In this document: positions 8,304-53,908 of the stretch, piece by piece
Layout: every line of letters starts with the position of its first letter
Numbering within the stretch: position 1 is the stretch's first letter
Assembly (NCBI GenBank): GCA_964374005.1
Contig: CAYJXB010000001.1
Span: 1 to 58,378, forward strand
From: an uncultured Planctomycetia bacterium
GTDB lineage: Bacteria > Omnitrophota > Gorgyraeia > 2-02-FULL-51-18
Direction of reading: 5' to 3'
Length of the DNA stretch: 58,378 nucleotides
Notes under the pieces: generated by a model
The model's input: only the letters and a program-made list of their open reading frames with translations
Database searches by the model: none
What the model was told of the DNA's origin: nothing
Made by a program: the position numbers and the translations under genes

Positions 8304-9110
8304 TTATACCTTTACCTTTTTTCCTAACGCCTTTGCGAACGGGCGGATAAACTCTTTGGAAAATTTCGTCGCGCTGATCCCTGGGTGAGCCATGAGGGCG
8401 CGAACAACCACGCTTCCGATGATCACTCCGTCGGCCATTTGAGAAAGGGTCTTTGCCTGCGCCGGAGTGGAAACGCCGAAGCCCACGCAGACCGGAAGTC
8501 TCGTCTGACGGCGAATGGCCTTAAGATTACGGCGAACGTCCGACGCGAGGGTTTTCCTCGCCCCGGTGACGCCGGTCAACGAGACATAATAAACAAACCC
8601 ACGCGTGGCGCGGGTCACCTTCTTTTGTCTGGCGCGATCGCTTGTCGGGGCCAAAAGATAGATTAAATTGATTTTGTGGCATTCGAGGACAGGACTGATT
8701 TCCAGCCCCTCTTCCGGAGGCAGATCAGAAACGATCACGCCGTCCACTCCGGCGCGCGCTGCGTCTTTCGCAAAACGCTGAATCCCATAATGAAAAATCG
8801 GATTGAAATAGCTCATCAAAAGAATGGGGGCCTGGCTCTTTTTCCTTACGCGCGCCACTAATTTTATGATTTTCGCAAGGGTCGTTCCGTTTTTGAGCGC
8901 TCGTTGGGAAGATGCCTGAATGACGGGCCCGTCGGCAATCGGGTCGGAGAACGGGACACCCAATTCAACCAGATCCACGCCGTTTTTCTCAAAGGCAAGG
9001 ATCAGCGCCTCAGTTTTTTTAAGGCCGGGGTCACCCGCCGTAATAAAAACGACGAGTGCTTTTTTCTTTTCTCTTTTCAGAAACTCAAATTTTTTTTGAA
9101 TCCGGTTCAC
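8304..9110 (-). CDS. trpA: tryptophan synthase alpha chain
   Basis: FITAGDP, ELGVPFSDPIADGP. I place the start at GTG 9110..9108 (VNRIQKKFEFLK...), 7 nt after AGGAGG. The ORF-track extension to 9140 (MVGWKKGGGG) lies inside repeat F1-a. Confidence 0.93.
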   Translation of the reverse strand: MNRIQKKFEFLKREKKKALVVFITAGDPGLKKTEALILAFEKNGVDLVELGVPFSDPIADGPVIQASSQRALKNGTTLAKIIKLVARVRKKSQAPILLMSYFNPIFHYGIQRFAKDAARAGVDGVIVSDLPPEEGLEISPVLECHKINLIYLLAPTSDRARQKKVTRATRGFVYYVSLTGVTGARKTLASDVRRNLKAIRRQTRLPVCVGFGVSTPAQAKTLSQMADGVIIGSVVVRALMAHPGISATKFSKEFIRPFAKALGKKVKV

Positions 9111-9258
9111 CCCACCACCTCCTTTTTTCCACCCCACCACTTATTTTTTACGATTGCGAAGCAATCGGTTCGCTTCGCGAACAAAATAAGTGGTGGGGTA
9201 GAAAGATTCGCTACAAGCGAATCTAAAGATTCTTCGAATCTAAAAGGAGGTGGTGGGG
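9110..9258. repeat. F1-a: MITE-like palindromic element between trpB stop and trpA start (composite, contains a 67-bp core at 9132..9198)
   Basis: Arms CCCCACCACCTCCTTTT (9110-9126) and AAAAGGAGGTGGTGGGG (9242-9258), 17/17 complementary. TCA at 9107-9109 and 9259-9261. Internal hairpins CGATTGC/GCAATCG, GTTCGC/GCGAAC, AGATTCGC/GCGAATCT, AGATTC/GAATCT. Confidence 0.9.
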
Positions 9259-9261
9259 TCA

Positions 9262-10443
9262 TCATAAATTCAGCGCTTTAGACGCCTGATCCATGTCCTT
9301 GTCTCCGCGTCCGGATAGGCAGAGAACCAACGTGTCATTTTTCTTAAATTGATTTTTATGTTTCGCGAGATACCCGATCGCATGGGAAGGCTCGAGAGCC
9401 GGAATGATGCCTTCGAGCGTGCTCAGCATCCTGAAACCCTTCAACGCTTCTTGATCCGTGACCGAGACATAGCGGACGCGTTTGGTGGATTTCAAATAGG
9501 CGTGCTCAGGGCCCACGCCCGGGTAATCTAACCCCGCCGAAATAGAATGTGCCAACAGAATCTGCCCGTCGGCGTCCTGCAACGCCTCGCTCTTGGATCC
9601 GTGAAGCACCGCGATTTGTCCCGAACTTAGGCTTGCCGCGTGTTTTCCGGTTTTGATCCCGAGCCCAGCCGCTTCGACGCCGATCATTTTTACGCGGGTG
9701 CCTAGATACGGATGAAAAAGCCCGAGGCTATTGGAACCCCCGCCGACGCAGGCCAAAAGATAATCGGGATCCTTTCGCCGAAGTTTTTTAAATTGGGATC
9801 GGGTCTCTTTTCCGATCACCGACTGAAAATCCCTCACCATCATCGGAAAAGGATGCGGCCCGATCACGGAGCCGATAATGTAGTGCGTGTCGCGCACGTG
9901 GGTCACCCAGTCGCGCAGCGCTTCATTGACCGCGTCTTTTAAAGTTTGAGAGCCCGTTTTGACCGGGATCACGCGCGCGCCTAAAAGTTTCATGCGAAAT
10001 ACATTGACCGCTTGCCGCTGAATATCCTCCTGCCCCATGTAAATATCACACGGAATCCCAAACAGGGCGCAAACGGTGGCCGTTGCCACGCCGTGTTGCC
10101 CGGCGCCGGTCTCGGCGATCACTCTCTTTTTTTTCATCCGCAGCGTCAGCAATACCTGGCCAAGCGTATTATTGATTTTATGAGCGCCCGTATGCAACAG
10201 GTCTTCTCTTTTTAAAAAAATTGTCTTGACGCCAATCGCTTTTGCCAATCGTTTGGCATCGGTGAGAGGCGTGGGTCTTCCCGCAAATTCTTTTAGATAA
10301 TAATTTAGTTCGTTCTTAAATCGACGGTCATTTCTGGCCTTCCGGTAGACGCCTTCAAGCTCTTCGAGAGCTGTCATCAACGTCTCGGGAACATAGCGGC
10401 CTCCGTAAGGGCCAAAATGGCCCCGGGTGTCAGGTTTTGGCAT
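9262..10443 (-). CDS. trpB: tryptophan synthase beta chain
   Basis: [19 protein letters not shown]-lysine region [17 protein letters not shown]. Confidence 0.97.
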
Positions 10444-12186: not shown

Positions 12187-12755
12187 GGCCGGGTCAAGCT
12201 TAAGAAATTACGCAGGATCTCCTTGCCGCATTGCGTGAGAATGGATTCGGGGTGAAATTGCACGCCATAGATCGGCAACGTTTTATGCTGCAACCCCATA
12301 ATCTCCTTTTCTTTTGTCTCGGCCGTGATCGTCAAATCCTTCGGCAATGTTTTTCGCTCCACGAGGAGCGAATGATAACGCGTGGCGACAAAAGGGTTGT
12401 CGATGTTTTTGAACACCCCTTTGCCGTTGTGATAAATTTTAGAAGTTTTTCCGTGCATGAGCCGTTTGGCGCCCACGACCCTTCCTCCGAACACCTCGCC
12501 GATGCACTGATGCCCCAGGCAAACGCCCAAAATGGGTATCTTAGAGCCCAGTTGCTTGATCACCTCTTTCGAAACGCCCGCATCTTTCGGGCTTCCGGGA
12601 CCGGGCGAGATCACGATACGACTGGGTTTCGCTTTTTTTATTTCGCTGATGGTGATCGCGTCATTTCTCACCACTTTTAATTCTTGGCCCATTTCGCCCA
12701 AGTACTGCACGAGATTGTAGGTAAAAGAGTCGTAGTTATCAATCATCAGGATCAC
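12183..12755 (-). CDS. trpG: anthranilate synthase component II (glutamine amidotransferase)
   Basis: [30 protein letters not shown] start 12755..12753 at the edge of F1-b. Confidence 0.95.
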
Positions 12756-12903
12756 CCCACCACCTCCTTTTGAGACGACAACCCCACCACTTGTTTAGCC
12801 GCATAAGCGGCCGATTGCTCCGCAATCGTTGCAAATAAGTGGTGGGGCAAAGTCGTCTCGGCGCTACGCGCCTGAATTGAAAATTCTAAAGGAGGTGGTG
12901 GGG
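12755..12903. repeat. F1-b: palindromic element between trpE stop and trpG start (contains a core-like module at 12782..12847)
   Basis: Arms CCCCACCACCTCCTTT (from 12755) and AAAGGAGGTGGTGGGG (12888-12903). TCA at 12752-12754 and 12904-12906 (the latter is the trpE stop). Confidence 0.9.
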
Positions 12904-14406
12904 TCATGATGCGACACCATTCTCGGCAAACTCAATCGCCTTTATCAGGGCCTTTGCTTTATTCACGGTCTCCTGATATTCCTTTTCGGGTTTGGAGTCC
13001 GCCACGATCCCGGCGCCTGCCTGGACGTAAGCTGTCCCGTCTTTGATCAAGAGCGTGCGAATCGCGATGCAGGAATCAAGATTCTTGGAATAGCTGAAAT
13101 AGCCCACAATGCCGGAATAAAACGAACGCTTCTGGTTCTCCAATTCGTCAATGATCTCCATCGCGCGCACTTTCGGCGCGCCTGAGATCGTGCCTGCCGG
13201 AAACGTCGCACGCAAAACGTCAAAAATGGTCTTGCCTTTTCTTAAGCGGCCTTCCACGTTGCTCACCAGGTGCATGACATGGGAATACTTCTCGACCGTC
13301 ATGAATTCGGACACCCGCACACTTTTATAATCGCAGACGCGGCCCAAGTCATTTCGCCCCAGGTCCACCAGCATCAAGTGCTCGGCGCGTTCCTTCGGAT
13401 CGTTCAGCAGTTCTTTTTCCAGCCGCGAATCCTCGCGGGCGTCCTTCCCCCGGCGGCGGGTGCCGGCAATGGGCCTTAAAGTCGTCTTTTCATTCTCGCA
13501 GCGTACGTGCACTTCCGGCGAGGCCCCGACAAGATAAAAGCCATCGCAATTCAGATAAAACATGTAAGGCGAGGGATTGATGGACCGCAGGGCGCGGTAC
13601 ACATCCAGCGGCTGGGACTGGACTTTCGTGCGAAACGCCTGCGAAAGAACGACCTGAATGATCTCGCCCTGCTTGATATAATTTTTTGCCTTTTGCACCG
13701 CCTTCTCAAATCCTGCCTTCTTGAAATTAGAGTCGATTTGGTGCGCCAACGGTTTGGCTTGGGCGGTGGAGAACCGGCTCTCTACCGGCATCGATCTCAA
13801 ACGCCGGATCTCCTGATCGATCTTTTGGACCGCGTGTTCATAAGCCTCTCCCGGATTTTTGAAATCATCCAACACGACATTGGAGACGACTTTGATCTTT
13901 TTGTCGAGATGATCAAAAATAAAAAGCGTGTCCGTGAAGATGAAAAGCGAATCCGGGATAGCTGCGGCCTCTTTATTTTTATCGGGGATTTTTTCGATGA
14001 ATCGCACCGTATCGTAACCCAGATAACCCACGGCACCGCCGGAAAAAGACGGAAGGCCTTTCACGGGCGCCTGTTTAAAGGGACTTAAAATCCGTTCCAG
14101 TTCGTATAAAGGGTCTTTCTTCGTGATAAAAATGTTTTCTTTTTTTCCGGGACGCGTCAGTGTGATTTGAAGTCCCTTACTTTTAAAAATAAGTGAGGGG
14201 GCCCCGCCGATAACGGAAAATCGAGCGATCTTCTCCCCTCCCTCGACCGACTCCAAAAGGTAGCTGTAAGGGTTGTCGCCCATCTTGATAAAGCAAGAAA
14301 CCGGTGTCTCAAGATCCGCGAGGATCTCGCGATAGACCGGGATCAGATTGGATCGCTTGGCCAATTTCAAAAACTCTTTTTTAGTCGGGCAACAATCATC
14401 CATCAA
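12904..14406 (-). CDS. trpE: anthranilate synthase component I
   Basis: 500 aa. LLESVEGGE, GAGIVADS, chorismate-binding C-terminal half. Confidence 0.96.
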   Translation of the reverse strand: MMDDCCPTKKEFLKLAKRSNLIPVYREILADLETPVSCFIKMGDNPYSYLLESVEGGEKIARFSVIGGAPSLIFKSKGLQITLTRPGKKENIFITKKDPLYELERILSPFKQAPVKGLPSFSGGAVGYLGYDTVRFIEKIPDKNKEAAAIPDSLFIFTDTLFIFDHLDKKIKVVSNVVLDDFKNPGEAYEHAVQKIDQEIRRLRSMPVESRFSTAQAKPLAHQIDSNFKKAGFEKAVQKAKNYIKQGEIIQVVLSQAFRTKVQSQPLDVYRALRSINPSPYMFYLNCDGFYLVGASPEVHVRCENEKTTLRPIAGTRRRGKDAREDSRLEKELLNDPKERAEHLMLVDLGRNDLGRVCDYKSVRVSEFMTVEKYSHVMHLVSNVEGRLRKGKTIFDVLRATFPAGTISGAPKVRAMEIIDELENQKRSFYSGIVGYFSYSKNLDSCIAIRTLLIKDGTAYVQAGAGIVADSKPEKEYQETVNKAKALIKAIEFAENGVAS

Positions 14407-15553: not shown

Positions 15554-16266
15554 GTCCTCACCGCCTCCCGAAGCGTAAATTTATTTTCATAAAGCGCCGT
15601 GCCGATGATCACACCCTTAATATTTTCTTGTTTAAGGTCCATGATCCTGGTTAGATCGCCAAGAGAGCGGACGCCGCCGGAGGCGATCACATCCTTAGGG
15701 AACGCTTGGCTGAGATCCCGGATTTCTTTAAGATTGGGACCCTCCAAGGCGCCGTCTTTTGAAATATCCGTATAAATAATCGTTTGGCCGCCCAATGCCT
15801 GGACTGTTTTTGCCAAATCGGTGGCTTTCGTGTGCGTCAGCGTTGTCCAGCCATCCGTCGCGATGAACCCGTCAAGCGCGTCGATGCCTACGATCATCTT
15901 TTCACCCAATTCGGACAACGCCTCTTTGAGAAACCCTTGATCCAGGCACGCCTTCGTGCCTAAAGTCACCCACGCCGCTCCCATCTCGAGAATAGACGCG
16001 GCCGTCTCAATGCTTCGGATGCCGCCGCCGACTTCGAGCGGTGTGCGGACGGATTTCAATATTTTTTCGACCGAGCTGAGGTTCCTCGGCGTCCCGTGAA
16101 GCGCCCCGTCCAAATCCACGACATGGATCCTGGAAGCGCCCTCTTCCTCAAAGCGCTTGGCGATCTTTTCGGGACCGTCAAAGTAGACTTTCTCTTCTTT
16201 AAATTTTCCTTGGACCAGGCGGACTACCTTTCCGTCTTTCAAATCAATCGCGGGGATCGGGATCAC
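15535..16266 (-). CDS. hisA: ProFAR isomerase (HisA)
   Basis: [32 protein letters not shown] start 16266..16264 at the edge of F1-c. Confidence 0.94.
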
Positions 16267-16432
16267 CCCACCACCTCTTTTTTGGCTTCAGCCAAAGACG
16301 CGCATAGCGCGTCGAGGCGACGCTTTAAATCCGTCGTCCAACCTAAATAAAACTTTTTGTCTTCTAGACTGCGCATGAGATACACGTAAGCGCTATTTAC
16401 CGTGAGCGTCGCCTCAGAAAGAGGTGGTGGGG
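16266..16432. repeat. F1-c: palindromic element between hisH stop and hisA start
   Basis: Arms CCCCACCACCTCTTT (from 16266) and AAAGAGGTGGTGGGG (to 16432). TCA at 16263-16265 and 16433-16435. Internal 11-bp inverted repeat GAGGCGACGCT / AGCGTCGCCTC. Confidence 0.88.
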
Positions 16433-17053
16433 TCACCCCACCACCTCTTTTCGGTAATCAATAAAGTTTTTTATCACGCGAAGCCCCAACGTCTGGCTTT
16501 TTTCAGGATGAAACTGGGTGGCAAAAATATTTCCTTTCCAGACCGCGGAACAAAACGAAATCCCGTAGCTCGTGGTCGCCGCGACCCAGGACCGGTCCTC
16601 GGGATCCCCATAAAAAGAATGGACAAAATAAAAATGATCCCCATTTTTAACGCCTTTAAGAACGGGGCAATTTTTTTTAGCGAGTTTCAAAGTATTCCAG
16701 CCCATGTGGGGTATTTTGAATCGCCCTTGAAAGCGGCGCACGCGTCCATGGACGATATCGAAACCCTTGACTCTTTTTCCCTCTTCGCTTTCGCTGAAAA
16801 GCAGCTGAAGCCCCAGGCAAAGCCCCAGATACGGCGTGCCGCTGGTTATTTTTTCTTTAAGTGCTTCCACGAGGTTGAGGCGTTTGAGCTCTCTCATCGC
16901 ATGGGTAAAGGCCCCTACGCCCGGCAGGATGATTTTTTCCGCCTTTTTCACCTCGCTTTTCGCGGACGTGATCTTGACGCGCTCGCCGTGATGTTCAAAG
17001 GCTTTTTGCACGCTGCGCAAATTCCCCATACCGTAGTCTACGATGACAATCAC
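16433..17053 (-). CDS. hisH: imidazole glycerol phosphate synthase glutaminase subunit
   Basis: IVIVDYGMGNLRS, GLCLGLQ, QFHPEKS. The last codons (KEVVG-stop) are made of an F1-type arm. Confidence 0.94.
   Translation of the reverse strand: MIVIVDYGMGNLRSVQKAFEHHGERVKITSAKSEVKKAEKIILPGVGAFTHAMRELKRLNLVEALKEKITSGTPYLGLCLGLQLLFSESEEGKRVKGFDIVHGRVRRFQGRFKIPHMGWNTLKLAKKNCPVLKGVKNGDHFYFVHSFYGDPEDRSWVAATTSYGISFCSAVWKGNIFATQFHPEKSQTLGLRVIKNFIDYRKEVVG
16436..16451. repeat. Solo F1-type arm forming the last codons of hisH
   Basis: CCCCACCACCTCTTTT directly abuts the hisH stop, so 16421-16447 is the palindrome GAGGTGGTGGGG-TCA-CCCCACCACCTC. Confidence 0.8.
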
Positions 17054-25168: not shown

Positions 25169-25729
25169 TCATTCAAGCGTCTCTAGATTTTTTATCACGT
25201 AGCGAATGCCGCTCCAAAGAGTGATCGCCACAATAAAAAATAGGCTGAAATAAATAAGCCGGGTGGCGCTCGGAGTCCATTCGGGCCGCCAGACACTGGT
25301 TTCCTTCACGGCGAGAAACAGCAATACCCCCACGATCGCGGCAAACTGTAATACCGTTTTTTGCTTACCGCTTCCGCGCGCGGACTGCGAGTCCCCCAAA
25401 GAAGGCGGGATAAGCCGCCAGCTCGTGATCAGAAAATCTCTCGTGATGATCAACACCACCATCCAGGCGGGCATGATGCCCATTTGCACAAATGCCAGGA
25501 ACGCGGAGAGCGTCAGAATTTTGTCCGCAATCGGATCCATGAGTTGCCCGAAGCGGCTGACCTGGCCCCTTTCGCGGGCGAACTTGCCGTCCCAGTAATC
25601 CGTAAAAACGGCCAGGATGAACGTCGCAAGCGCCAGCGCCTTAGACAGCGCCCCCTGAACGGAAAGAAGGAGTATGAAAACGACGGTGAGAAGAATGCGA
25701 TAAAACGTTAAACGATTGGGAAGCGTCAC
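25169..25729 (-). CDS. pgsA: CDP-diacylglycerol--glycerol-3-phosphate 3-phosphatidyltransferase
   Basis: DYWDGKFARERGQVSRFGQLMDPIADK motif. GTG start 25729..25727 at the edge of F1-d. Confidence 0.9.
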   Translation of the reverse strand: MTLPNRLTFYRILLTVVFILLLSVQGALSKALALATFILAVFTDYWDGKFARERGQVSRFGQLMDPIADKILTLSAFLAFVQMGIMPAWMVVLIITRDFLITSWRLIPPSLGDSQSARGSGKQKTVLQFAAIVGVLLFLAVKETSVWRPEWTPSATRLIYFSLFFIVAITLWSGIRYVIKNLETLE

Positions 25730-25847
25730 CCCACCACTCCTTTCGTCCCACCACTTGTTTTTTGCGATCCGAAGGATCGGCCGCCGATGGCGGCAAAACA
25801 GGTGGTGGGACCAATCGCCTTGCGATTGTAAGAAAGAAGTGGTGGGG
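25729..25847. repeat. F1-d: palindromic element between rimO stop and pgsA start (inner module 25747..25809)
   Basis: Arms CCCCACCACTCCTTTC and GAAAGAAGTGGTGGGG (one G-U position in the transcript). TCA at 25726-25728 and 25848-25850. Confidence 0.88.
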
Positions 25848-27185
25848 TCACTCCACGGTCCCGATCAGGTCGTACTCCAGCGCATCCTTGATTTTGACCC
25901 TCGTAAAATCCCCCGGCTTCAAATCGGACCGGCTATGAATAATCACCTGCCCGTCCACTTCCGGCGCGTCGCCTTCGGTACGCCCGTAAAACAATCCTTC
26001 TTCCTCAGCGTTTTTTTCATCCACCAAGACGCGCAACTCTTTCCCTACCAGAGCGCTATTGAGGCTCCGAGAAATTTCCTGCTGCTGTGCCATCACGGCG
26101 TTGAAGCGCTCTTCTTTGATTCTCTTTGGGATTTGATCCGGCCACCCGTAAGCGCGGGCGCCCTCTTCCTCTGAAAACATAAATGCGCCGAGCCGTTCAA
26201 ATCTCACCTCTTGCAAAAAACCCAGTAACTCTTGAAATTCCTCGTCGGTCTCCCCTGGAAACCCCACGATGACGGTTGTGCGGATGTGGACGCCCTTTAT
26301 TTTCTTTCGAAGCGCATGAATCCCCCACTCCATTTTGGCGCGCGTCACGCCGCGATTCATCCGTTTTAACATCTCCTCATGGCTGTGCTCGATCGGGAAA
26401 TCCACATACCGGCACACACTGGGGTTCTCGGCGATCGCGTCGATCAGTTCCTCGCTGACATGGCCGGGATGCGCATACAAAAATCGGACCCAAGGCACCA
26501 GATCAAGTTTCACGATTTTCCTTAAAAGCTCGGGTAGCTTGAACGTTTTATCCTGATCATAGCCATAGGCCGCCGTATCCTGTCCTATCAGATTGACCTC
26601 TGAAAGCTTTCTTGCGCCGGCAATGATTTTAATCTCGTTTAAAACAGATTCGATCGAGCGGGAACGATGAGGGCCTTTCATTTTTGGAATCACGCAATAA
26701 GAACACGCGTTGATGCACCCTTCGGATATTTTCACATAAGCGAAATGATCCGGCGTCAGGGAAACCCGCGGCGCGTTTTCATCGAGAAGAGTGCGGGGCT
26801 TGGGCTTCACCTCATAGATCTTTTCCTTTCTTTCGAGCGGTTTTAAAAGCCGCGCCAGATCCCCGTAATTATTAGTGCCGATAATCCCGTCCACCTCAAT
26901 TAACTCTTTCTCTAACTCCTGGCCAAAGCGCTGGGCCAAGCATCCGAGCACGACCACCGCAGACAGCTTCCCCTTCTTCTTCAATTCGCACAGCTTTAAA
27001 ATTGTCTCGATGGATTCCAATTTGGCCGATTCGATGAAACCGCAGGTATTCACGACTGCGACGTCCGCGAGCTCAATATCCGGAACAATCTCATGGCCGT
27101 GTTTTTCAAGACTGCCGAGGGCCACCTCGGAATCCACGAGAGTCCTTGAACAACCTAGGCTGATGAGTCCGATTTTCATAGGCAA
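25848..27185 (-). CDS. rimO: ribosomal protein S12 methylthiotransferase RimO
   Basis: UPF0004 N-domain (SLGCSRTLVDSE), radical-SAM CINACSYC, C-terminal TRAM domain. Confidence 0.9.
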   Translation of the reverse strand: MPMKIGLISLGCSRTLVDSEVALGSLEKHGHEIVPDIELADVAVVNTCGFIESAKLESIETILKLCELKKKGKLSAVVVLGCLAQRFGQELEKELIEVDGIIGTNNYGDLARLLKPLERKEKIYEVKPKPRTLLDENAPRVSLTPDHFAYVKISEGCINACSYCVIPKMKGPHRSRSIESVLNEIKIIAGARKLSEVNLIGQDTAAYGYDQDKTFKLPELLRKIVKLDLVPWVRFLYAHPGHVSEELIDAIAENPSVCRYVDFPIEHSHEEMLKRMNRGVTRAKMEWGIHALRKKIKGVHIRTTVIVGFPGETDEEFQELLGFLQEVRFERLGAFMFSEEEGARAYGWPDQIPKRIKEERFNAVMAQQQEISRSLNSALVGKELRVLVDEKNAEEEGLFYGRTEGDAPEVDGQVIIHSRSDLKPGDFTRVKIKDALEYDLIGTVE

Positions 27186-42470: not shown

Positions 42471-43322
42471 TTACACCGTGATTAAGAAATTATCGATGAG
42501 CCTGACGTTTCCAAAGAAAACCGCGAGCGCTATCAGGATTTTCTGGCGGTTTTTCAATTCTACCACAGGTTCGAGCGTCTGGGCATCGACAATTTCAACA
42601 TAGTCGATTTTGAGATGCCGCGCGTTTTTTAGCACCTCTTTGACTCTCTTTTTGATCTTAGACGCATCGGCCACGCCGCTCTTGACTAAATCCGAGCCTC
42701 GTTGCAGCGCCCGGTACAAAAAAGGCGCCTCTTGCCGCTCGGGGGCCGACAACAAGACATTGCGTGAACTCATCGCGAGCCCATTGGGCTCTCGGACGAT
42801 GGGCGCCATTCTCACGCGGACCGGAAAATCCAGGTCCTTCACCATTTGCTCAATGAGTCGAAACTGCTGATAGTCCTTCTGGCCCAGATAAATCGTATCG
42901 GGCATGACAATATTTAAAAGTTTCAAAACGACAGTCGCCACGCCGACGAAATGGGACGGGCGTGAAACGCCGCACAACCCTTGAGCGAAGTTTTTGACCG
43001 AGACCGACGTTTGAAAATCTTCCGGATAAAACTCCCTCACACGCGGTGTAAAAAGAAAATTAATCTTTTCCTTTCGTAAAAGTTCGGTGTCTTTTCCCAG
43101 ATCTCTTGGGTATCGCCAAAAATCATCAAGGGGACCGAATTGCAATGGGTTCACAAAGATGCTGACCACGGTCGCCTTGTTCTCCTTCTTTGCCTGACGG
43201 ACAAGCGAGAGATGGCCTTCGTGAAGATACCCCATCGTCGGCACAAAACCAATCGCGCGGCGGCGTTTCCTTAAAGCCTGAAGCGCGTTTCTAAGCTCCT
43301 GAGAATGGCGTATAACTCTCAC
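42471..43322 (-). CDS. panC: pantoate--beta-alanine ligase
   Basis: [19 protein letters not shown] start 43322..43320 at the edge of F1-e. Confidence 0.94.
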
Positions 43323-43431
43323 CCCACCACCTTCTTTGTTTCACCGCGACGCCCAATGACACCAAGAGCGGTGAAAGGATTCGCCGCAGGCGAATCCAAG
43401 GATTCTTCGAATCTAAAAGAAGGTGGTGGGG
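43322..43431. repeat. F1-e: palindromic element between folK and panC
   Basis: Arms CCCCACCACCTTCTTT and AAAGAAGGTGGTGGGG (16/16). TCA at 43319-43321 and 43432-43434. Shares GATTCTTCGAATCTAAAAG with F1-a. Confidence 0.9.
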
Positions 43432-43898
43432 TCATGGCAAAGTTCTTCGTAAAGCTGCTTGATGGTTTTCTTAAGCTTTGGATGGACAAGGTCCGGCGCG
43501 ATCTCGAAGAGAGGTTGCAACACAAACTTCCTCTGTGCCAGCCGGGGATGCGGGATGCTTAAGGTTTTTCCCTCAAGGATCACCACATCCCCGTAAAATA
43601 AAATATCCAAATCCATGCTCCGCGGCGTGTTAGGCGGCGATTTTAAACGGCCAAGCCGGCGCTCGATCATCTTGAGTTGCGAAAGTAGTTCCAGCGGAAG
43701 AATGTCCGTGTCGATCTTGATCGCGCCGTTTAGGAATTTCCCTTGAAGCCCCCCCTCTACTTCCGGATCAGTTTCAATGAGGGCGGAGACGGCCTGAACC
43801 TGGATTTCCTTATTTTCTTTTAAAAGTGCCAAGGCTTTGTCGATGTTGGCTTGCCGGTCGCCAAGGTTGGATCCGATGCCTAGATAGACCAACGGCAT
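43413..43898 (-). CDS. folK: 2-amino-4-hydroxy-6-hydroxymethyldihydropteridine diphosphokinase
   Basis: VYLGIGSNLGDR, PRSMDLDIL, IPHPRL. The last 6 codons (DPTTFF) are read from the F1-e arm. Confidence 0.9.
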   Translation of the reverse strand: MPLVYLGIGSNLGDRQANIDKALALLKENKEIQVQAVSALIETDPEVEGGLQGKFLNGAIKIDTDILPLELLSQLKMIERRLGRLKSPPNTPRSMDLDILFYGDVVILEGKTLSIPHPRLAQRKFVLQPLFEIAPDLVHPKLKKTIKQLYEELCHDPTTFF

Positions 43899-45079: not shown

Positions 45080-45805
45080 TTATCTCTCTTTTTTTAAGAC
45101 GTCGGAAATGTTGTAGAAACCTGGTTTCTTGCCGGCTAAAAAAAGGGCTGCGTCGAGCGCGCCATTCGCAAATGCATCCCGAGACTCTGCATGATGAGAA
45201 AGCGTGAACGTCTCTCCGGGGCCACTAAAGATCACGGTATGATCGCCAACGATCTCATCTTGGCGAATGACGTGAACCTCGTTTTCCATTTCTGCGGCCC
45301 TGGCTGGATTCCAACCCTTTGCTTTTGCGATTGCCTGCACAATTTTTTTGGCTGTTCCGCTCGGTCTGTCCTTTTTATGTATATGATGGGCTTCGGCGAT
45401 CTTAATGCTATAGGACTTACCAAATTTTGTGGCGGCTAAGGCTGCCAGCTCGATAAGGGAATTGGCCCCACGACTCATGTTTGGTGACAAAAGGACTGGG
45501 ATTTTCTCCGAGGCTTTCTTTACTTCCGATTCGATTTTTTCACCAAGGCCTGTGGTTGCAATCACAATGGCTGTCTTGGCTTCGAGACACGCTTTGAGAG
45601 CTTCTCGGGTCCCTTCGGGCAGCGAAAAATCAATTAAAACATTAGCCCCTTTTAAAGCTTCGGCCGATGGTTTATCATTTTGATCAAACACGGCGACGAT
45701 CTTAAAATCCTTTGAATCGCGCGCCAATGAAAGGATCCGCGTCCCCATGCGCCCAAGCGCACCGTTCACCGCGATTTTTACCCCGTTAGAAATCTTCTTA
45801 TTCAT
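45080..45805 (-). CDS. dapB: 4-hydroxy-tetrahydrodipicolinate reductase
   Basis: KIAVNGALGRMG. I place the start at ATG 45805..45803, 7 nt after AGGAGA. The ORF-track GTG at 45829 lacks a comparable SD. Confidence 0.9.
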   Translation of the reverse strand: MNKKISNGVKIAVNGALGRMGTRILSLARDSKDFKIVAVFDQNDKPSAEALKGANVLIDFSLPEGTREALKACLEAKTAIVIATTGLGEKIESEVKKASEKIPVLLSPNMSRGANSLIELAALAATKFGKSYSIKIAEAHHIHKKDRPSGTAKKIVQAIAKAKGWNPARAAEMENEVHVIRQDEIVGDHTVIFSGPGETFTLSHHAESRDAFANGALDAALFLAGKKPGFYNISDVLKKER

Positions 45806-45862
45806 ACCATTATCTCCTGTTGTCACCACCCACCGTCAAAGCATGATTTCTAACGGGGTGAA
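45781..45862. repeat. F2a-2: palindromic element between dapA stop and the ancestral dapB start, now partly coding
   Basis: CCCCGTTAGAAATC (45781-45794) and GATTTCTAACGGGGTGAA (45845-45862). Flanks are TTA (45778-45780, degenerate) and TCA (45863-45865). Confidence 0.8.
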
Positions 45863-46747
45863 TCATGACCTTCCCTTGACTTTCAAGCCGTAAGTTTTCA
45901 TGGCCTGCGTCAAGATTTTTTGGTTTCGGGGCTGCATCGGCGAAAGCGGCAGACGAAGCTCCTCGCGGCAAAGCCCCATCAAACCCATGGCCTTCTTAAT
46001 CGGGATCGGATTTGTTTCAATAAATAGGGCGCGGCACAAAGGAAACATTTTATAATGAAGCTCCCGGGCTCTCTGGAAGCTCCCGGCAAAATAAGCGTCC
46101 ACCATTTCCGAAACCGCCTGTGGCACGATGTTGGCGATCACCGAAATGACCCCTTTGGCGCCCAAGGCCATTAAAGGTAAGGTCAGGGAATCATCGCCGC
46201 TTAAGACCGTGATATCGCATAAGGATAAAATGTGAGAGGTCTGGTCCATGCTGCCGGTCGCTTCTTTGATCCCCACGATATTTTTTATTTTTGACAATCG
46301 CGCGACCGTCTCAGGAATCAGCGTCACGCCCGTGCGACCGGGGACATTGTAAAGAATGATGGGAATATTCACTTTTCGGGCAACTTTTTCATAATGCCGG
46401 TAGAGCCCTTCCTGCGTCGGACGGTTGTAATACGGCGTGACCATCAACGCGCCGTCGGCGCCTGCTTTTTTCGCGAACTTCGTCAGCGAAATAGCCTCTT
46501 CCGTACTATTGGAACCCGTGCCCGCTATCACCGGGACTTCGTGGCTGGCCGCCTCGACCACCACCTTCATCACGCGTTCGTGTTCTTTGTGCGACAACGT
46601 GGGGCTCTCGCCTGTCGTGCCGGCCGGCACGATGCCGTCGGTGCCCGATCGAATATGAAACCGCACAAGCTTCGCCAAGGCCTTTTCATCCACTTTTCCG
46701 TTCCTAAACGGCGTCACAATGGCCACGATCGAACCATGAAATTTCAC
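45863..46747 (-). CDS. dapA: 4-hydroxy-tetrahydrodipicolinate synthase
   Basis: IVAIVTPF, GTTGES, IVGIKEATGS (Schiff-base Lys). GTG start at the edge of F1-f. Confidence 0.95.
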   Translation of the reverse strand: MKFHGSIVAIVTPFRNGKVDEKALAKLVRFHIRSGTDGIVPAGTTGESPTLSHKEHERVMKVVVEAASHEVPVIAGTGSNSTEEAISLTKFAKKAGADGALMVTPYYNRPTQEGLYRHYEKVARKVNIPIILYNVPGRTGVTLIPETVARLSKIKNIVGIKEATGSMDQTSHILSLCDITVLSGDDSLTLPLMALGAKGVISVIANIVPQAVSEMVDAYFAGSFQRARELHYKMFPLCRALFIETNPIPIKKAMGLMGLCREELRLPLSPMQPRNQKILTQAMKTYGLKVKGRS

Positions 46748-46862
46748 CCCACCACCTCCTTTTTTCCACTGCCCACTTTATCCTCCCACCACGCAAAGGC
46801 AGTGGAAGAATCCGCCAAAAGCGGATTCGTCAATCTAATAGATTGTAAAGGAGGTGGTGGGG
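46747..46862. repeat. F1-f: palindromic element between dapF stop and dapA start
   Basis: Arms CCCCACCACCTCCTTT and AAAGGAGGTGGTGGGG. TCA at 46744-46746 and 46863-46865 (the latter is the dapF stop). Confidence 0.9.
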
Positions 46863-47675
46863 TCATAACTTCACTCTCCCCTCAAACGTCGTTTGAACAG
46901 GACCTTCCAGACAGACGTCAGAAAACTTCCCACCCTTTCTTGAGAAATAAACCTTCAAGATCTCCCCACCTTTTGTGCGGACGAGCACAGGAGATTTCAA
47001 ACCCTTTAAAGCGGCCGCCACGAGCGCCGCAGCGGTAGATCCCGTGCCGCATGAAAGCGTCTCTCCCTCGACGCCGCGCTCATAAGTCCGTACCTCTATG
47101 GTATTCTGTGATCCCAGACAAACAAAATCAGCGTTGGTCCCTCTGGGGGCAAAATAAGGATGGCGCCGGATCTCGCGCCCAAACCGATCCACATCCACAC
47201 CCCTCAAAGAATCCACGAATTTCACGGCGTGCGGCACGCCGGTATCGATGAAATTCAATATTTCATTCCTCCCGTTGACCTGGAGGCTGAAATTCAACTT
47301 GAGGCTTTTGGGCTTCGCCAATTTGGCCGTGACGATATTTTTGCGGACCTCCGCCCCGATGATCCCCGCGAGCGTTTCGATGGACAACCGACCCTTTTTC
47401 ATCTTATGATCCGCCAAGAATTTTGCGGCACAGCGGACTCCATTGCCGCACATCTGGGCCTGGCTTCCGTCAGGGTTAAAAATCCGCATCTTGACGTCGG
47501 CCTTTTTTGATTTGTCTAAAAGGATCAGGCCGTCCGCTCCGATCGAATATTTGCGCTCCGACAATTTTTTGGCTATTTTTGCCGCGTCGTTCCCGATGAC
47601 TCCCGAACGATTATCCACGACGATAAAATCATTGCCCGCCGCCGCCATTTTCGTAAACGGACAGCCAGCCATCAA
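46863..47675 (-). CDS. dapF: diaminopimelate epimerase
   Basis: FTKMAAAGNDFIVVDN, MCGNG, SCGTGS. Confidence 0.94.
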   Translation of the reverse strand: MMAGCPFTKMAAAGNDFIVVDNRSGVIGNDAAKIAKKLSERKYSIGADGLILLDKSKKADVKMRIFNPDGSQAQMCGNGVRCAAKFLADHKMKKGRLSIETLAGIIGAEVRKNIVTAKLAKPKSLKLNFSLQVNGRNEILNFIDTGVPHAVKFVDSLRGVDVDRFGREIRRHPYFAPRGTNADFVCLGSQNTIEVRTYERGVEGETLSCGTGSTAAALVAAALKGLKSPVLVRTKGGEILKVYFSRKGGKFSDVCLEGPVQTTFEGRVKL

Positions 47676-48946: not shown

Positions 48947-48949
48947 GAT

Positions 48950-48993
48950 TAGCGTATAGCGTATAGCGTATAGAGAAAAAACGCTATCCGCTA
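48950..48993. repeat. Tandem heptamer (TAGCGTA, 3 full copies plus a partial fourth) plus inverted partner ACGCTATCCGCTA between argH and lysA
   Basis: TAGCGTATAGCGTATAGCGTATAG at 48950-48973. Inverted 13-mer at 48981-48993 (12/13 complementary). Confidence 0.85.
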
Positions 48994-49006
48994 GAATCTC
49001 CTATTG

Positions 49007-51569: not shown

Positions 51570-52622
51570 TTATCTTTTTTTTCTTTTGGTGGTCAAAAGC
51601 AGATACATGAGCGCCTTCTGCGTATGCAAACGGTTCTCCGCCTGGTCAAAGATCGCCGAGCGGGAATGTTCAATCACTTCTTCGGTGATTTCCTCGCCAC
51701 GATGCGCCGGCAGGCAGTGCAAGATCATCGAATCTTTCGGCGCCTTGCCGATGATCGCGCCATTGACCTGAAAGGGCTGGAAATCACGCAGCCGTTGCTC
51801 CCGCTGCTTTTCCTGCCCCATGCTGACCCATACGTCGGTATAAATCACATGGGCATTTTTAATGGCCGTGAAAGGATTGTTCGATAGCGTTATCTTAGAA
51901 GCGCTCCCTTTCGCGATGAGCTTGATGTCTTTCAGGATCTCCTCGCCCGGTTCATAACCACGCGGCGTGGCAATGGCCAGATTCGCGCCCGCCTTGGCCG
52001 CCCCGTACAAGAGCGAGTTCAACACGTTGTTTCCGTCCCCGATATAAGCGATATTGATTTTATCAAGCGATTTGAATTTCTCCCGGATCGTAAAAAGATC
52101 CGCCAGCGTCTGGCAAGGATGAAACGAATCGCTCAAACCGTTGATCACCGGGACCGTCGCGTGTTTGGCGAACTCTTCCACATCCGAGTGCGTGTAAGTC
52201 CTCGTGACGACAATGTCGCAGTACCGTGACAAAACACGCGCGACGTCTTTAATGGATTCCCGCTCTCCGAGCGGCATCTCCTGAGGGTCCATATAAACCG
52301 CGCTTCCGCCAAGCTCGTTGATCCCCACCTGAAATGACACGCGCGTGCGGATCGAGGGCTTTTGGAAAAGAAGCGCCAGGGATCGCCCCTTTAGCTTGCT
52401 GAAAAACCCTTGCGGGTTCTTCTTCATCTTTTCTGCCATTTTAAAGAGGGCCTCGAAATCGCACCACTCCATCTCCTTGATGCTCAGCAAATCTTTGAAC
52501 TGAAACGGTGCGCCCGAAGGCCTTTTCAACTTCGTTCTTTTCTTTGATGCGGCTCGGCGACGTGCGGCGCGTTTTTTTCTTGTGCCCTTGGATCTTCTTT
52601 TACTCTTTTTGGATCTTTTCAT
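51570..52622 (-). CDS. argF: ornithine carbamoyltransferase with polybasic N-terminal extension
   Basis: SIRTRVSF, HPCQTLAD, HCLPAHRGEE. The first ~38 residues are a K/R-rich tail not typical of OTCases. Confidence 0.9.
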   Translation of the reverse strand: MKRSKKSKRRSKGTRKKRAARRRAASKKRTKLKRPSGAPFQFKDLLSIKEMEWCDFEALFKMAEKMKKNPQGFFSKLKGRSLALLFQKPSIRTRVSFQVGINELGGSAVYMDPQEMPLGERESIKDVARVLSRYCDIVVTRTYTHSDVEEFAKHATVPVINGLSDSFHPCQTLADLFTIREKFKSLDKINIAYIGDGNNVLNSLLYGAAKAGANLAIATPRGYEPGEEILKDIKLIAKGSASKITLSNNPFTAIKNAHVIYTDVWVSMGQEKQREQRLRDFQPFQVNGAIIGKAPKDSMILHCLPAHRGEEITEEVIEHSRSAIFDQAENRLHTQKALMYLLLTTKRKKR

Positions 52623-52647
52623 GCGGCCTTACTCCCTTCGTTGGTCA

Positions 52648-52716
52648 CCCCACCACCTGTTTTCTACGATTGCTACAAGCAATCGGTCTGCTTCGCGGAC
52701 AAAACAGGTGGTGGGG
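52648..52716. repeat. F1-g: 69-bp core-only F1 element inserted in the 3' end of argD
   Basis: CCCCACCACCTGTTTT ... AAAACAGGTGGTGGGG (16/16) enclosing hairpins CGATTGC-TACA-GCAATCG and GTCTGC/GCGGAC. TCA at 52645-52647 and 52717-52719. Collinear with 9132..9198. Confidence 0.9.
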
Positions 52717-53908
52717 TCAAGCGTCTTTCTTCTTCCGCCACCAGAACTTCGTCCAGTATCTGTATTGCGCGGTCAATCTCCTTTTCTCTTACCACCAAGG
52801 GTGGCATCAGTCTTAAAACATTCCCTTGCGTGCAGTTAATCAAGAGCTTGCGCTTTAGACATTCCTCATAAATATTCTTTCCTTCGATCGTTAATTCCAA
52901 TCCTGCCATTAAACACATGCCCCGAACCTCTTTAATCATCGGATGCTTCTTTTTAAGCTCATGAAGACGTTTAAATAAATGGGAGCCTGTGATCACCGCG
53001 TTGTTAATCAATTTTTCCTTATTGATCGCTTCAAACGTCGCCAGCGCCGCCGCACAAGCCAGCGGGCCGCCGCCAAACGTCGTGGCATGAGTTCCCGGCT
53101 CCAAAATATCAGCGATTTCTTTCTTCGCGATCATGGCCCCCATGGGAAATCCGCCGCCGATCGACTTGGCAAGCGTTAGGATGTCCGGTTCGAAACCGAA
53201 GTTTTTAAAACAAAACATGCGCCCGGTCCTACCCATCCCCGTTTGCACTTCGTCGAGAATTAAAAGAATCCTTTTATCGTTGCAAAGACGCCTCAAGGAA
53301 GATAAATACGCTTGGTCGGCCACATGGATGCCTCCTTCACCCTGAATGGGTTCCAAAATAACGGCGACTGTTTTTGGCGTCACCGCTTGTTCTAGGGCCT
53401 CCATATTATTGAAAGGGACCGTCGTAAAGCCCGGCACGAGCGGCTCAAAACCTTGTTGGTGCTTTTTTTGGCCGGTGGCCGTGATTGCGGTGATGGTCCT
53501 TCCGTGAAACGAGCGCTCCATCGAAATAATTTCGTTCCTCGAGGGGTTGCCAAATTTTCTGGCGAGTTTAAACGCCGCCTCGTTCGCCTCGGCTCCTGAG
53601 TTGCAAAAAAAGACTTTGCCCGGAAAGGAGTGACGGATTATTTCTTCCGCCAGCGTTCCCTGCAGTTCATGGTAATAATTATTGGACACGTGGATCAGCC
53701 GCTCGGCCTGCCGCTTGATCGCCTCCACGACACGGCGGTGGCAATGACCGATGCCACTGACACCCCAGCCCGGAAAGAAATCAAGGTATTCGTCCCCTTG
53801 CGTGTCCCACACTCGAGTCCCTCTGCCTCTCTCCAATACCAGAGGGGTTTTGGTATAACAGGGAACAACGTAGTCGTAATAGAGTCTAATCGTCTTGCGA
53901 TAATCCAT
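52673..53908 (-). CDS. argD: acetylornithine aminotransferase
   Basis: Class III aminotransferase (FFCNSGAEANE, LILDEVQTGMGRTG, TFGG). The last ~15 codons are read from element F1-g. Confidence 0.92.
   Translation of the reverse strand: MDYRKTIRLYYDYVVPCYTKTPLVLERGRGTRVWDTQGDEYLDFFPGWGVSGIGHCHRRVVEAIKRQAERLIHVSNNYYHELQGTLAEEIIRHSFPGKVFFCNSGAEANEAAFKLARKFGNPSRNEIISMERSFHGRTITAITATGQKKHQQGFEPLVPGFTTVPFNNMEALEQAVTPKTVAVILEPIQGEGGIHVADQAYLSSLRRLCNDKRILLILDEVQTGMGRTGRMFCFKNFGFEPDILTLAKSIGGGFPMGAMIAKKEIADILEPGTHATTFGGGPLACAAALATFEAINKEKLINNAVITGSHLFKRLHELKKKHPMIKEVRGMCLMAGLELTIEGKNIYEECLKRKLLINCTQGNVLRLMPPLVVREKEIDRAIQILDEVLVAEEERRLTPPPVLSAKQTDCL

Follow-up and report, generated by a model that had tools for sequence, protein, structure and literature searches.

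Two described systems come closest to the elements analysed here. MIRUs are direct, often tandem units (VNTRs) of 46–101 bp from mycobacteria, with no known terminal inverted repeats (TIRs), long hairpin or coding parent. They insert at start codons inside operons; a small ORF within them is coupled at −4 nt (NTGA) to the gene that follows, a coupling thought to limit damage to expression (Supply et al. 1997, as related in PMC12548453). The Ssn nucleases are small single-domain GIY-YIG proteins (~94–110 aa), each of whose genes has a palindromic repeat, the NTS/SRM hairpin, on either side; this repeat is also dispersed genome-wide in many copies, and the authors note the IS-like architecture (PMC11893778). 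Neither system was found to combine both designs. Bacterial MITEs (Correia elements, MITEAba12) are small, occur in many copies, and have TIRs, a short target direct repeat and a longer coding relative with shared TIRs, while REP/BIME elements with RAYT and the IS200/IS605 elements tie hairpin-forming repeats to a small nuclease gene. REPs measure 20–40 bp, are extragenic and usually lie past operon ends; IS200/IS605 elements move by 'peel and paste', insert beside a short tetra- or pentanucleotide target and need single-stranded DNA hairpins. GIY-YIG enzymes are also the classic homing endonucleases, and in T4-like phages seg (GIY-YIG) or mob (HNH) genes are wedged between conserved genes. 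Some of these free-standing genes overlap the upstream stop, such as mobE with UAAUGA (PMC2988022), suggesting translational coupling.

The window analysed here, a 58,378-nt stretch of DNA that is a contig of a metagenome assembly and belongs to an omnitrophotal host, contains seven elements of one family, F1 (copies a–g, 69–167 bp). The elements and their TIR boundaries, reported in a preliminary description, were confirmed by a motif count and an independent inverted-repeat scan. Read along the minus (transcript) strand, the family has the form NTGA-CCCCACCAC...GTGGTGGGG-TGA, and all seven copies fit TGA-CCCCACCAC[C/T]...GGTGGTGGGG-TGA, such that TGA (TCA on the plus strand) flanks every copy on both sides, also as described. 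The ends are CCCC/GGGG, and TIRs of 15–18 nt are present in 7/7 copies; the scan recovered all seven TIR pairs, those of copies a, e and f being perfect over 17–18 nt. The copies are diverged from one another and, in contrast to MIRUs, are palindromic and form no tandem arrays.

The possibility that the elements are chance palindromes or assembly artefacts, in favour of which there is only the metagenomic origin of the contig, is refuted. The motif CCCCACCACC (≤1 mismatch) has 22 matches in the window against 2.2 expected, a number reached in 0 of 100 shuffles, and 20 of the 22 lie inside the seven F1 elements or their inner modules. F1-type architecture recurs in independent assemblies and in several phyla. 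Furthermore, the 3′ arm of copy b is joined to trpG in an independent assembly (L135, ERR4904390), indicating that F1 elements are no artefact of a single assembly. At gathering thresholds the Rfam covariance models gave tRNA-Pro as the sole match, and at E ≤ 1 they gave no match on copies e or f; the dRS3/NTS core (ATTCCC-N8-GGGAAT, ≤1 mismatch) has 0 matches in the window.

The rule that unites the F1 copies is the start codon (NTG+A) belonging to the downstream gene, not the junction and not the combination of a stop and a start. All 14 flanking gene identities were confirmed (trpB/trpA, trpE/trpG, hisH/hisA, rimO/pgsA, folK/panC, dapF/dapA and argD/argF), and six of the seven copies sit on NTG+A of the downstream gene. 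Specifically, on the minus strand, copy a (149 bp, 9110..9258, with TGA repeats at 9259-9261 and 9107-9109) is positioned on the trpA start codon, copy b (149 bp, 12755..12903) on that of trpG, copy c (167 bp, 16266..16432) on that of hisA, copy d (119 bp, 25729..25847) on that of pgsA, copy e (110 bp, 43322..43431) on that of panC, and copy f (116 bp, 46747..46862) on that of dapA. In copies a–f the terminal G plus TG forms the earliest start codon available to the ORF that follows, as had been proposed for six of the seven, and alignments to the family profiles begin at residues 1–8. The 5′ TGA serves as the upstream stop in four copies (b, after trpE; c; d, after rimO; and f, after dapF) rather than in five.

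Copy g (69 bp, 52648..52716, minus strand), the minimal module, is an exception to the rule: it lies in the argD 3′ tail, 26 nt 5′ of the ATGA where the argF ORF begins. The preliminary description placed all copies at gene-gene junctions, which holds for a–f but not for g, and its statement that no copy lies inside a gene body is contradicted by g. In a further correction, folK runs six codons into copy e. Its view that the placement is far from random and unlike REP-type terminators is borne out. The argD 3′ tail is not conserved at this position, 14 residues taking the place of the last 8 (as reconstructed). The length of copy g is 0 mod 3, its frame is closed, and its TIR lacks GGAGG. Modules resembling g are nested, on the minus strand, in copy a (9132..9198, CCCCACCACT...AAGTGGTGGGG, from the inverted-repeat scan), copy b (12782..12847, with TTG on both sides) and copy d (25746..25810); they have no flanking TGA, and they too depart from the start-codon rule.

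Loci of other genomes were retrieved by a pattern with one TGA flank, so the TGA rule outside the window is only partly independent; of the 37 listed elements that TGA flanks at both ends, 34 precede an ORF of 72–867 codons whose start is formed by the terminal base and TG, and one of the exceptions, L001, is truncated where its contig ends. In only about half of these 37 does the 5′ TGA terminate a long upstream ORF in frame. Across 36 elements, TGA is preceded by A in 27, by G in 7, by T in 2 and by C in none. A purine-rich host Shine-Dalgarno (SD) sequence lies at −8 to −13, and NTGA is the only sequence that the insertion sites share.

The elements also provide the downstream gene with a ribosome-binding site and a start codon. 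The last base (G or A) plus TG rebuilds the host start with a 4-nt overlap (GTGA or ATGA), and the 3′ TIR contains a perfect SD sequence, AAAGGAGGTG, 7 nt 5′ of the rebuilt GTG or ATG. Across several genomes, the length is 2 mod 3 in 27 of 33 short copies (p = 1.4e-8), and frame 0, counted from the old start codon, stays open in 28 of 33, compared with 10–15 of 33 in control frames; with this length and this open frame, the elements look like translationally coupled mini-cistrons. In copy a, the mini-ORF (MMTPPPP...KKEVVG-stop, 9107..9265) begins at the old trpA ATG(s), ends at the second TGA and overlaps the new GTG start by 4 nt. The mini-ORFs of copies b (MTPPPP...QKEVVG-stop, 12752..12907), c (VTPPPL...KKEVVG-stop, 16263..16436), d (VTPPLL...TKGVVG-stop, 25726..25851), e (MTPPPS...TKKVVG-stop, 43319..43435) and f (MTPPPP...GKKEVVG-stop, 46744..46866) likewise lie on the minus strand. 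The F1 family thus has the start-codon site and the internal ORF coupled at −4 nt of MIRUs, and is distinguished from them by its TGA direct repeat, by the SD sequence in its 3′ TIR and by a full-length form that encodes a GIY-YIG nuclease. The preliminary description missed the open mini-ORF, the 2 mod 3 rule, the SD sequence of the 3′ TIR and the piece of GIY-YIG gene that copy c contains.

That full-length form was identified through copy c, which is a GIY-YIG element with an internal deletion and comprises the first 43 codons of the nuclease. Its mini-ORF matches Pfam GIY-YIG (PF01541) with E = 5e-6, contains a remnant of the GIY-YIG N-terminal motif (AYVYLMRSLEDKKFYLGWTTDLKRRL, 16314..16391, minus strand), is 67% identical to residues 1–41 of the full-length protein P0098, and retrieves P0001 and P0002 in searches. 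The full-length elements measure ~300 bp (296–314 bp), encode a UPF0213/Slx1-like protein of ~100–112 aa, and are bounded by the CCCCACCACCTC.../...GAGGTGGTGGGG inverted repeats shared with the short copies. L001 and L002 (296 bp) and L052 (314 bp) read ATGA-TIR...TIR-TGA, and the TIR of L052, CCCCACCACCTCTTTCGG, is perfect over 18 bp and identical to that of copy c in its first 15 nt. Like the short copies, the full-length elements occupy NTGA, of which NTG is the start codon of a host gene, and have TGA on both sides. Since the ORF starts at the host's own start codon and stops at the second TGA, the 5′ TIR encodes M-T/I-P-P-P and the 3′ TIR encodes Q/E-V-V-G, the two ends of the protein; a 4-nt overlap with both neighbouring genes is present in L052, L053 and L140–L144. 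The search gave 240 protein clusters, and among the 120 listed, 69 start with MIPPP, 10 with MTPPP and 10 with MIPSP, and ~100 end in Q/E-V-V/M/G-G. In well over 100 diverged clusters, the GIY-YIG ORF takes up the whole element from one TIR to the other; the catalytic core is invariant. The short copies retain the TIRs, and their interior is replaced by two or three small Watson-Crick hairpins.

Consistent with this, the seven F1 elements are probably non-autonomous, MITE-like derivatives of a tiny mobile element whose only gene encodes a 100–112-aa GIY-YIG nuclease of the UPF0213/Slx1-like branch. The protein consists of the nuclease core and disordered tails, with no further DNA-binding domain, and its fold is nearest to Slx1 (31–36% identity) and UPF0213; ordinary UPF0213 proteins lack the terminal extensions, and matches start at profile position 17. 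By comparison with UPF0213 and Slx1, their nearest relatives of solved structure, the proteins look like members of the UPF0213/Slx1 branch rather than of cd10448. As in the Ssn systems, the nuclease gene of the full-length forms has a palindromic repeat on each side, but this 'repeat' is a pair of TIRs from which both termini of the protein itself are translated, whereas NTS is a 28–30-bp hairpin near the gene. The text of PMC11893778 mentions neither start codons nor intergenic placement.

A relative of conventional insertion sequences was also considered. IS1031-group and Harbinger-type transposases yield TIRs and 3-bp direct repeats (ISfinder groupings), and F1 has TIRs and a 3-bp TGA/TCA direct repeat of the TNA type. 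The elements could therefore be ordinary MITEs moved in trans by a DDE transposase with 3-bp TNA duplications (IS5/IS1031 group or PIF/Harbinger-like), with the GIY-YIG ORF a passenger or the full-length form itself non-autonomous, and with the junction pattern due only to the purging of harmful insertions by purifying selection; moreover, to our knowledge no nuclease of this GIY-YIG type moves or transposes DNA. However, the coding relatives with the same TIRs encode a GIY-YIG nuclease, not a recognised transposase. This is the sole ORF of the 296–314-bp elements, in which there is space for nothing else, and no recognised transposase, DDE or otherwise, lies between the TIRs; nor was a transposase-like gene present beside the full-length copies looked at. 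In addition, terminal base, SD sequence and frame are tuned to start codons, features that selection on random insertions would not build in. F1 further differs from IS-derived MITEs in lying at start codons, in its fixed orientation to the host gene and in its conserved reading frame. We consider movement by a DDE transposase improbable.

Comparison of filled and empty sites argues for insertion. The syntenic Omnitrophota relatives L138 and L139 have an empty ATGA at trpE-trpG and an empty GTGA and ATGA at trpB-trpA, whereas the window and L136 have ATGA[element]TGA. The difference indicates insertion with a TGA direct repeat, for which target duplication and an element-borne TGA look alike in this comparison. 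A 149-bp homologue of copy b lies at a different locus in L004, with its inner g-like module in reverse orientation relative to copy b, and a MAG with a b-type 149-bp element at a non-orthologous site has an empty trpE-trpG junction. Adjacent to copy c, a solo 3′ TIR remnant (AAAAGAGGTGGTGGGG plus TGA, 16433..16452, minus strand), detected by the inverted-repeat scan, is fused to the hisH C-terminus (..YRKEVVG-stop); it is probably the residue of a second, tandem insertion. The hisH of L136 ends in ..DTR-stop and lacks the remnant.

The same data bear on whether the short copies are now immobile in this genome and kept by the host as operon modules, be it as translational couplers or insulators, as mRNA-stabilising or processing hairpins, or as DNA-level structures. 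This reading overlaps the derivation from a mobile element and differs from it solely in who benefits. Three junctions are also filled in a relative with 66% TrpD identity, pointing to long persistence, which suits domestication as much as parasitism, and some F1 copies, judged from this comparison, are old residents. The 2 mod 3 length and the open frame are likewise maintained, and the copies in the window have diverged. The elements fold with minimum free energies (MFE) of −44 to −99 kcal/mol and z = −8 to −14 (copy a, with a perfect 17–18-nt TIR, has −97 kcal/mol and z = −14), and their hairpins contain compensatory changes, both sides having changed in 17 of 39 pairs across 9 elements. 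G-U pairs account for only 15 of 357, and the two strands fold about equally well; this almost purely Watson-Crick pairing speaks for a role of the hairpins in the DNA itself and weakens the case for RNA structure as the selected trait. Against retention by the host stand the empty junctions of L138 and L139, the solo TIR at hisH, which points to repeated insertion at one site, and the different element subtypes at trpE-trpG in the window and L136, which suggest turnover over strict inheritance. Host-kept modules thus seem somewhat unlikely. The copies found at different sites included no two that were nearly identical, the six contigs of P0043 representing one locus, and recent transposition is accordingly no more than possible.

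Homing would be a further route for a GIY-YIG gene. The full-length element would then be a free-standing homing endonuclease gene whose sole means of spread is to cleave alleles of one junction that lack it and to be copied into them during repair, with the short copies as decayed remnants and no transposition to new sites. The prominence of GIY-YIG enzymes in homing and the free-standing endonuclease genes between T4 genes favour such a route. Members of the family, however, are found at many unrelated junctions of a single genome and of different genomes, and NTGA has nowhere near the length of a homing site. Homing does not characteristically involve TIRs or a direct repeat, and the protein has no DNA-binding domain beyond its nuclease core; seg and mob genes, in turn, have extra DNA-binding domains and one cognate site, and lack TIRs, target duplication and short derivatives. 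Homing is therefore very improbable.

For movement by the GIY-YIG nuclease itself, we propose that the enzyme would cut the base of the TIR hairpin or cruciform at the TGA/CCCC boundaries, thereby driving excision and insertion, by analogy with the Ssn nucleases, which cleave only single-stranded DNA, site-specifically, beside a hairpin repeat, and with Slx1, which cuts branched DNA. The closest mechanistic parallel to a TGA-adjacent cut is IS200/IS605, although the F1 enzyme is a GIY-YIG nuclease rather than a Y1 HUH transposase and F1 has no GTAG or CGTC head. We know of no strand transfer by a hydrolytic GIY-YIG enzyme, and the joining step would fall to host functions. Once the element is inserted, ribosomes from the old SD sequence and start codon would translate the mini-ORF; alternatively, they would come from the upstream gene where the first TGA is its stop. 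Translation would melt the 17-bp TIR stem, in which the new SD sequence otherwise pairs with the anti-SD-like 5′ TIR, and ribosomes would terminate on the TGA overlapping the new start and re-initiate there, allowing host gene expression to outlast the insertion.

In the literature searched, the combination of F1 properties was not found for any transposon, in agreement with the preliminary description, which knew of no such family; MIRUs (PMC12548453) and Ssn (PMC11893778) are partial precedents. As a tentative proposal, the elements may represent a new class of prokaryotic transposable element, moved by a 100-aa hydrolytic GIY-YIG (Slx1/UPF0213-like) nuclease in place of an enzyme of the DDE, HUH, serine or tyrosine type. 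Such an element would target NTGA at host start codons without a promoter or ribosome-binding site of its own, take over the host translation start, and give back an SD sequence and a start codon that its 3′ inverted repeat provides. Its non-autonomous hairpin derivatives (F1 and probably F2 in the window) would stay in operons for core biosynthesis, as translationally coupled mini-cistrons, in Omnitrophota, Elusimicrobiota and Planctomycetota. If this is true, a mobile element can inhabit essential operons at almost no cost, using host translation signals for its own gene and then rebuilding them for the host; a GIY-YIG nuclease would join the short list of DNA-moving enzymes in prokaryotes, and part of the large uncharacterised UPF0213 family would acquire a function. 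The nuclease with its TIR pair, and the SD-plus-start hairpin that opens on translation, are possible tools. For annotation, start codons, C-termini (hisH, folK and argD) and 'intergenic' spacers of candidate-phylum genomes are shaped by such elements, at which assemblies also break.

Allowing at most one mismatch, the motif CCCCACCACC has 22 matches in the 58-kb window; chance alone would give 2.2. Of the 22, 20 lie within the seven F1 elements or their inner modules. A separate inverted-repeat scan recovers all seven pairs of terminal inverted repeats (TIRs). Thus, the seven palindromes of the preliminary description are present, and the names that it gave to their flanking genes are correct: trpB|trpA (copy a), trpE|trpG (b), hisH|hisA (c), rimO|pgsA (d), folK|panC (e), dapF|dapA (f) and argD|argF (g). 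In a crude ORF-based gene set, 58 of the 61 genes of the window are on the minus strand, and on the transcript strand every copy reads TGA-CCCCACCAC[C/T]...GGTGGTGGGG-TGA, with TGA on both sides as reported. In an independent assembly from another run (L135, ERR4904390), the contig begins partway along copy b's 3′ arm and then enters trpG.

Three details are revised. The 5′ TGA serves as the upstream gene's stop codon in four copies (b, c, d and f), rather than in five. The claim that every copy lies at a gene-gene junction fails for copy g, which is located within argD's non-conserved tail; the ATGA that opens the argF ORF follows 26 nt downstream. In addition, folK enters copy e and reads six of its codons. 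Through copy g, the reconstructed last 8 residues of argD are replaced by 14. In the argF ORF (window 51570–52622), ~40 codons precede the start of the ornithine carbamoyltransferase profile alignment, so the true start may be downstream of the ATG at 52622. No tandem arrays of F1 are found in the window, and the proposed comparison with Rfam returned no matching family on the F1 elements, either in the whole window at gathering thresholds or in 43290–46900 at E ≤ 1.

The base preceding the 5′ TGA of the window copies is A, G or T only (ATGA in four copies, GTGA in two and TTGA in one), indicating that the flank is a start codon plus A. Six of the seven copies have lengths of 2 mod 3 (149, 149, 167, 119, 110 and 116 bp), and in these six a mini-ORF, the frame from the old host start codon to the second TGA, is open through the whole element, running from M/V-T-P-P-P... 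to ...K-E/G/K-V-V-G. In the same number of copies, as previously noted, the terminal G of the element and the TG of the second TGA combine into the GTG with which the downstream gene starts, such that stop and start overlap by 4 nt. The 3′ TIR reads AAAGGAGGTGGTGGGG-TG, which provides a perfect Shine-Dalgarno sequence (SD) 7 nt ahead of the rebuilt start, while the 5′ TIR carries the complement of this SD, CACCTCCTTT, which matches the anti-SD tail of 16S rRNA.

The mini-ORF of copy c holds AYVYLMRSLEDKKFYLGWTTDLKRRL, a GIY-YIG motif (Pfam E = 5e-6), and a protein search with this mini-ORF retrieved P0001, a 100-aa GIY-YIG protein that starts with MIPPP and ends with QEVVG. Its DNA, with a length of 296 bp (2 mod 3), reads ATGA-TCCCACCACCTC...GAGGTGGTGGGA-TGA; the ORF spans the element end to end, and the terminal A plus TG forms the ATG of the following gene. 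A 314-bp full-length version, encoding P0098, has a perfect 18-bp TIR, CCCCACCACCTCTTTCGG, of which the first 15 nt are as in copy c, and sits between an unknown gene and purD (locus L052) with a 4-nt overlap on each side; such overlaps on both sides are also present in L053 (NeuB | GIY-YIG | epimerase) and in loci L140–L144. Copy c is 67% identical to residues 1–41 of P0098, indicating that it is an internally deleted copy. A full-length relative with F1-type TIRs, suggested as a search target in the preliminary description, therefore exists, but it encodes a GIY-YIG nuclease rather than an IS enzyme.

A wider search yielded 240 protein clusters. Among the 120 clusters listed, the N-terminus is MIPPP in 69, MTPPP in 10 and MIPSP in 10, and the C-terminus is Q/E-V-V/M/G-G in ~100; little or no variation is seen at the GIY-YIG catalytic residues. 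Among solved structures, the UPF0213 proteins 1zg2 and 1ywl are the closest by sequence; the predicted model (mean pLDDT 76), with low-confidence N- and C-terminal tails, is nearest to Slx1 (31–36% identity over the nuclease core). When 1.84 billion representative proteins were searched with a profile, 19 matched at E ≤ 1e-30 and 4,873 at E ≤ 1e-10, and ordinary relatives mostly align only from profile position 17, indicating that the TIR-encoded extensions are specific to this subgroup. GIY-YIG representatives with other palindromic termini (MNPAP... / ...GAG) also exist. A 319-bp F1 element with a frameshifted, stop-ridden GIY-YIG ORF (L035 3098–3416, minus strand), from an Omnitrophota MAG that also has several short copies, is an intermediate stage of decay.

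The window is one entire contig of 58,378 bp, for whose TrpB an exact search matched no record. Its TrpD relatives belong to Omnitrophota, and two syntenic relatives, L138 (GCA_001804125.1, 60% TrpD identity) and L139 (GCA_964642015.1, 63%), have empty sites. Specifically, the trpE|trpG junction reads ...gcc ATGA tttt... in L138 and ...gca ATGA tatt... in L139, the trpB|trpA junction has GTGA and ATGA, respectively, and the hisA site of L139 reads ATGAtcccgat. In the window and in L136, a syntenic relative carrying elements, the same positions are filled, ATGA[element]TGA; either the TGA is duplicated or one copy is carried by the element, two routes that would leave the same sequence. The −4 overlap at these junctions is also frequent in more distant genomes. 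L136/L137 (66% TrpD identity) have elements of 131, 113 and 116 bp at all three junctions, each 2 mod 3, with partly homologous arms and compensatory substitutions in the hairpins.

MAG MHFI01 contains a homologue of copy b, also 149 bp long and with the nested module, at a locus (L004) that has no gene in common with the window, and the trpE|trpG junction of the same MAG is empty, indicating that the family has moved and that some copies are old. JGI metagenome contigs scanned with TrpD contain only relatives of at most 53% identity, none carrying elements, with −4 overlaps common at the junctions. Comparison of the window with the first 51 loci by blastn and tblastx found no orthologous junctions, and a search for identical copies at different sites through the GIY-YIG protein P0043 (six contigs) returned one locus from six samples.

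In 185,579 species genomes scanned for a TIR pattern, matches came mainly from MAGs of Omnitrophota, Elusimicrobiota and Planctomycetia, several per MAG. The fetch pattern covered one end including its TGA and is thus biased for a TGA flank, so that, outside the window, the rule of flanking TGAs is only partly independent of it; the results on location, frame and length are independent. Among 36 non-redundant elements with TGA on both sides, the preceding base is A in 27, G in seven, T in two and C in none, and positions −8 to −13 upstream of the 5′ TGA are rich in purines, as a host SD would be. An ORF of 72–867 codons begins at the terminal base plus TG in 34 of 37 elements (a listing including duplicates; L001, one of the three exceptions, is simply cut by a contig end), while only about half of the 37 have a long upstream ORF that ends in frame at the 5′ TGA, indicating that the target is the start codon at which the downstream gene begins. 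Consistent lengths and frames are also found among short copies: 27 of 33 are 2 mod 3 (binomial p = 1.4e-8), and 28 of 33 have an open frame from the old start codon, versus 10–15 of 33 in control frames. The window has 12 unoccupied −4-overlap junctions, and 22 of its 1,091 transcript-strand TGAs are in gene-free DNA, none of them occupied.

The fold of each copy consists of two or three small hairpins closed by a 17-bp stem (MFE −44 to −99 kcal/mol, z = −8 to −14 versus shuffles), and nine elements from six contigs and five genomes align to one architecture, in which 17 of 39 predicted pairs have changed on both sides. Structural selection acting on RNA only is weakened as an explanation because G-U pairs are nearly absent (15 of 357 in the window copies) and both strands fold about equally well. 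These two features point to a constraint at the DNA level (ssDNA hairpins or a cruciform), or to palindrome-templated repair, at least as much as to RNA selection.

Nested insertion of the inner modules by the same target rule is unsupported, as no TGA duplication was found around these modules, which have TTG on both sides in copy b and L004 and no consistent flank in copies a and d. The 66-bp inner module of the b-type element (window 12782–12847; L004 7498–7563) occupies the same TTG-flanked spot with its two small hairpins in opposite order; the b-type interior was either inverted between its own TIRs or inserted twice independently. At window 16433–16452, a solo 3′ TIR, AAAAGAGGTGGTGGGG, plus TGA is joined in frame to hisH, which ends ..YRKEVVG*, versus ..DTR* in the L136 orthologue. 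Probably, the rebuilt GTGA received a second, tandem insertion, of which the solo TIR is the leftover.

Our confidence is high in the descriptive model of F1, comprising its anatomy, parent element, empty and filled sites, start-codon rule and frame conservation, and moderate in the following accounts of translation and mobility. Ribosomes would enter at the old SD and start codon of the host or, where the first TGA ends the upstream gene, from that gene; reading of the mini-ORF or nuclease ORF would open the TIR stem that hides the new SD, and termination at the TGA overlapping the new start would be followed by re-initiation there. Such coupled translation would account for the length and frame kept in copies without conserved coding content. 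Slx1 cuts branched DNA. The ssDNA cuts made by Ssn nucleases lie a few nucleotides away from the hairpin repeat of these enzymes (PMC11893778). By analogy, the F1 nuclease may recognise the TIR hairpin or cruciform and cut at the base beside TGA, with a joining step that would have to be host-supplied. A full-length copy would be expressible only on a start codon, providing a selective reason for the targeting, and the rebuilt GTGA would itself be a target, which fits the solo TIR at the end of hisH.

To our knowledge, MIRUs are direct or tandem units with neither TIRs nor a coding parent, whereas F1 has both and forms no tandem arrays. Common to the two is insertion at start codons with a −4-coupled ORF, as reported for MIRUs (PMC12548453). 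The Ssn/NTS systems comprise small GIY-YIG nucleases linked to dispersed hairpin repeats, with an IS-like gene architecture and no described link to start codons (PMC11893778); their repeat differs from the F1 TIRs, and their protein subfamily appears to differ as well. IS-derived MITEs share TIRs, a target repeat and a coding relative with F1 but differ in the enzyme. The design of F1, a start-codon TIR element with a GIY-YIG parent, is not described in the full-text literature searched, in agreement with the initial impression that no described family has this combination. The F1 finding is real and considerably richer than first reported. We rate F1 as a MITE/IS-like element in which coupling as in MIRUs is combined with a nuclease–repeat pairing of the Ssn kind, and we see a considerable, though less than even, chance that it represents a new transposon class, driven by a nuclease and hijacking start codons.

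The window contains further repeats. A second palindromic family, F2 (857–935, 25063–25166, 30110–30213 and 45782–45857), has TIRs (A/T)CCCGTTAGA... / ...TCTAACGGG(G/A) and is the design of F1 with a different end sequence. The F2 copies at pgsA|168-aa ORF and dut|ftsK read ATGA...[G/A]TGA; in each, a 37-codon mini-ORF, M-N/S-PVRLLNF...LLVRSLTG*, is open, and the 3′ TIR contains AAGGAG. A further F2 copy is present in L003, a locus from another genome. A third type, a long A/T-rich inverted repeat between same-strand genes (35054–35191, MFE −59 kcal/mol; 53909–54029, −32 kcal/mol), has arms rich in AAAACG/AAAACT and GC-rich inner hairpins, such as GTCGC-TTCG-GCGAC. At 39701–39724 (repeat I6, 88% complementary), 14 nt from the tRNA-Pro gene (39737–39814), part of the 3′ half of tRNA-Pro(CGG) is repeated in inverted orientation; this copy may be the remnant of an integration site. 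In addition, a 27-nt inverted repeat with an array of TTCTGTC-type heptamers (54917–54981) is located upstream of the gene at 54030–54971, and the spacer at 48947–49006 contains three tandem TACGCTA units.
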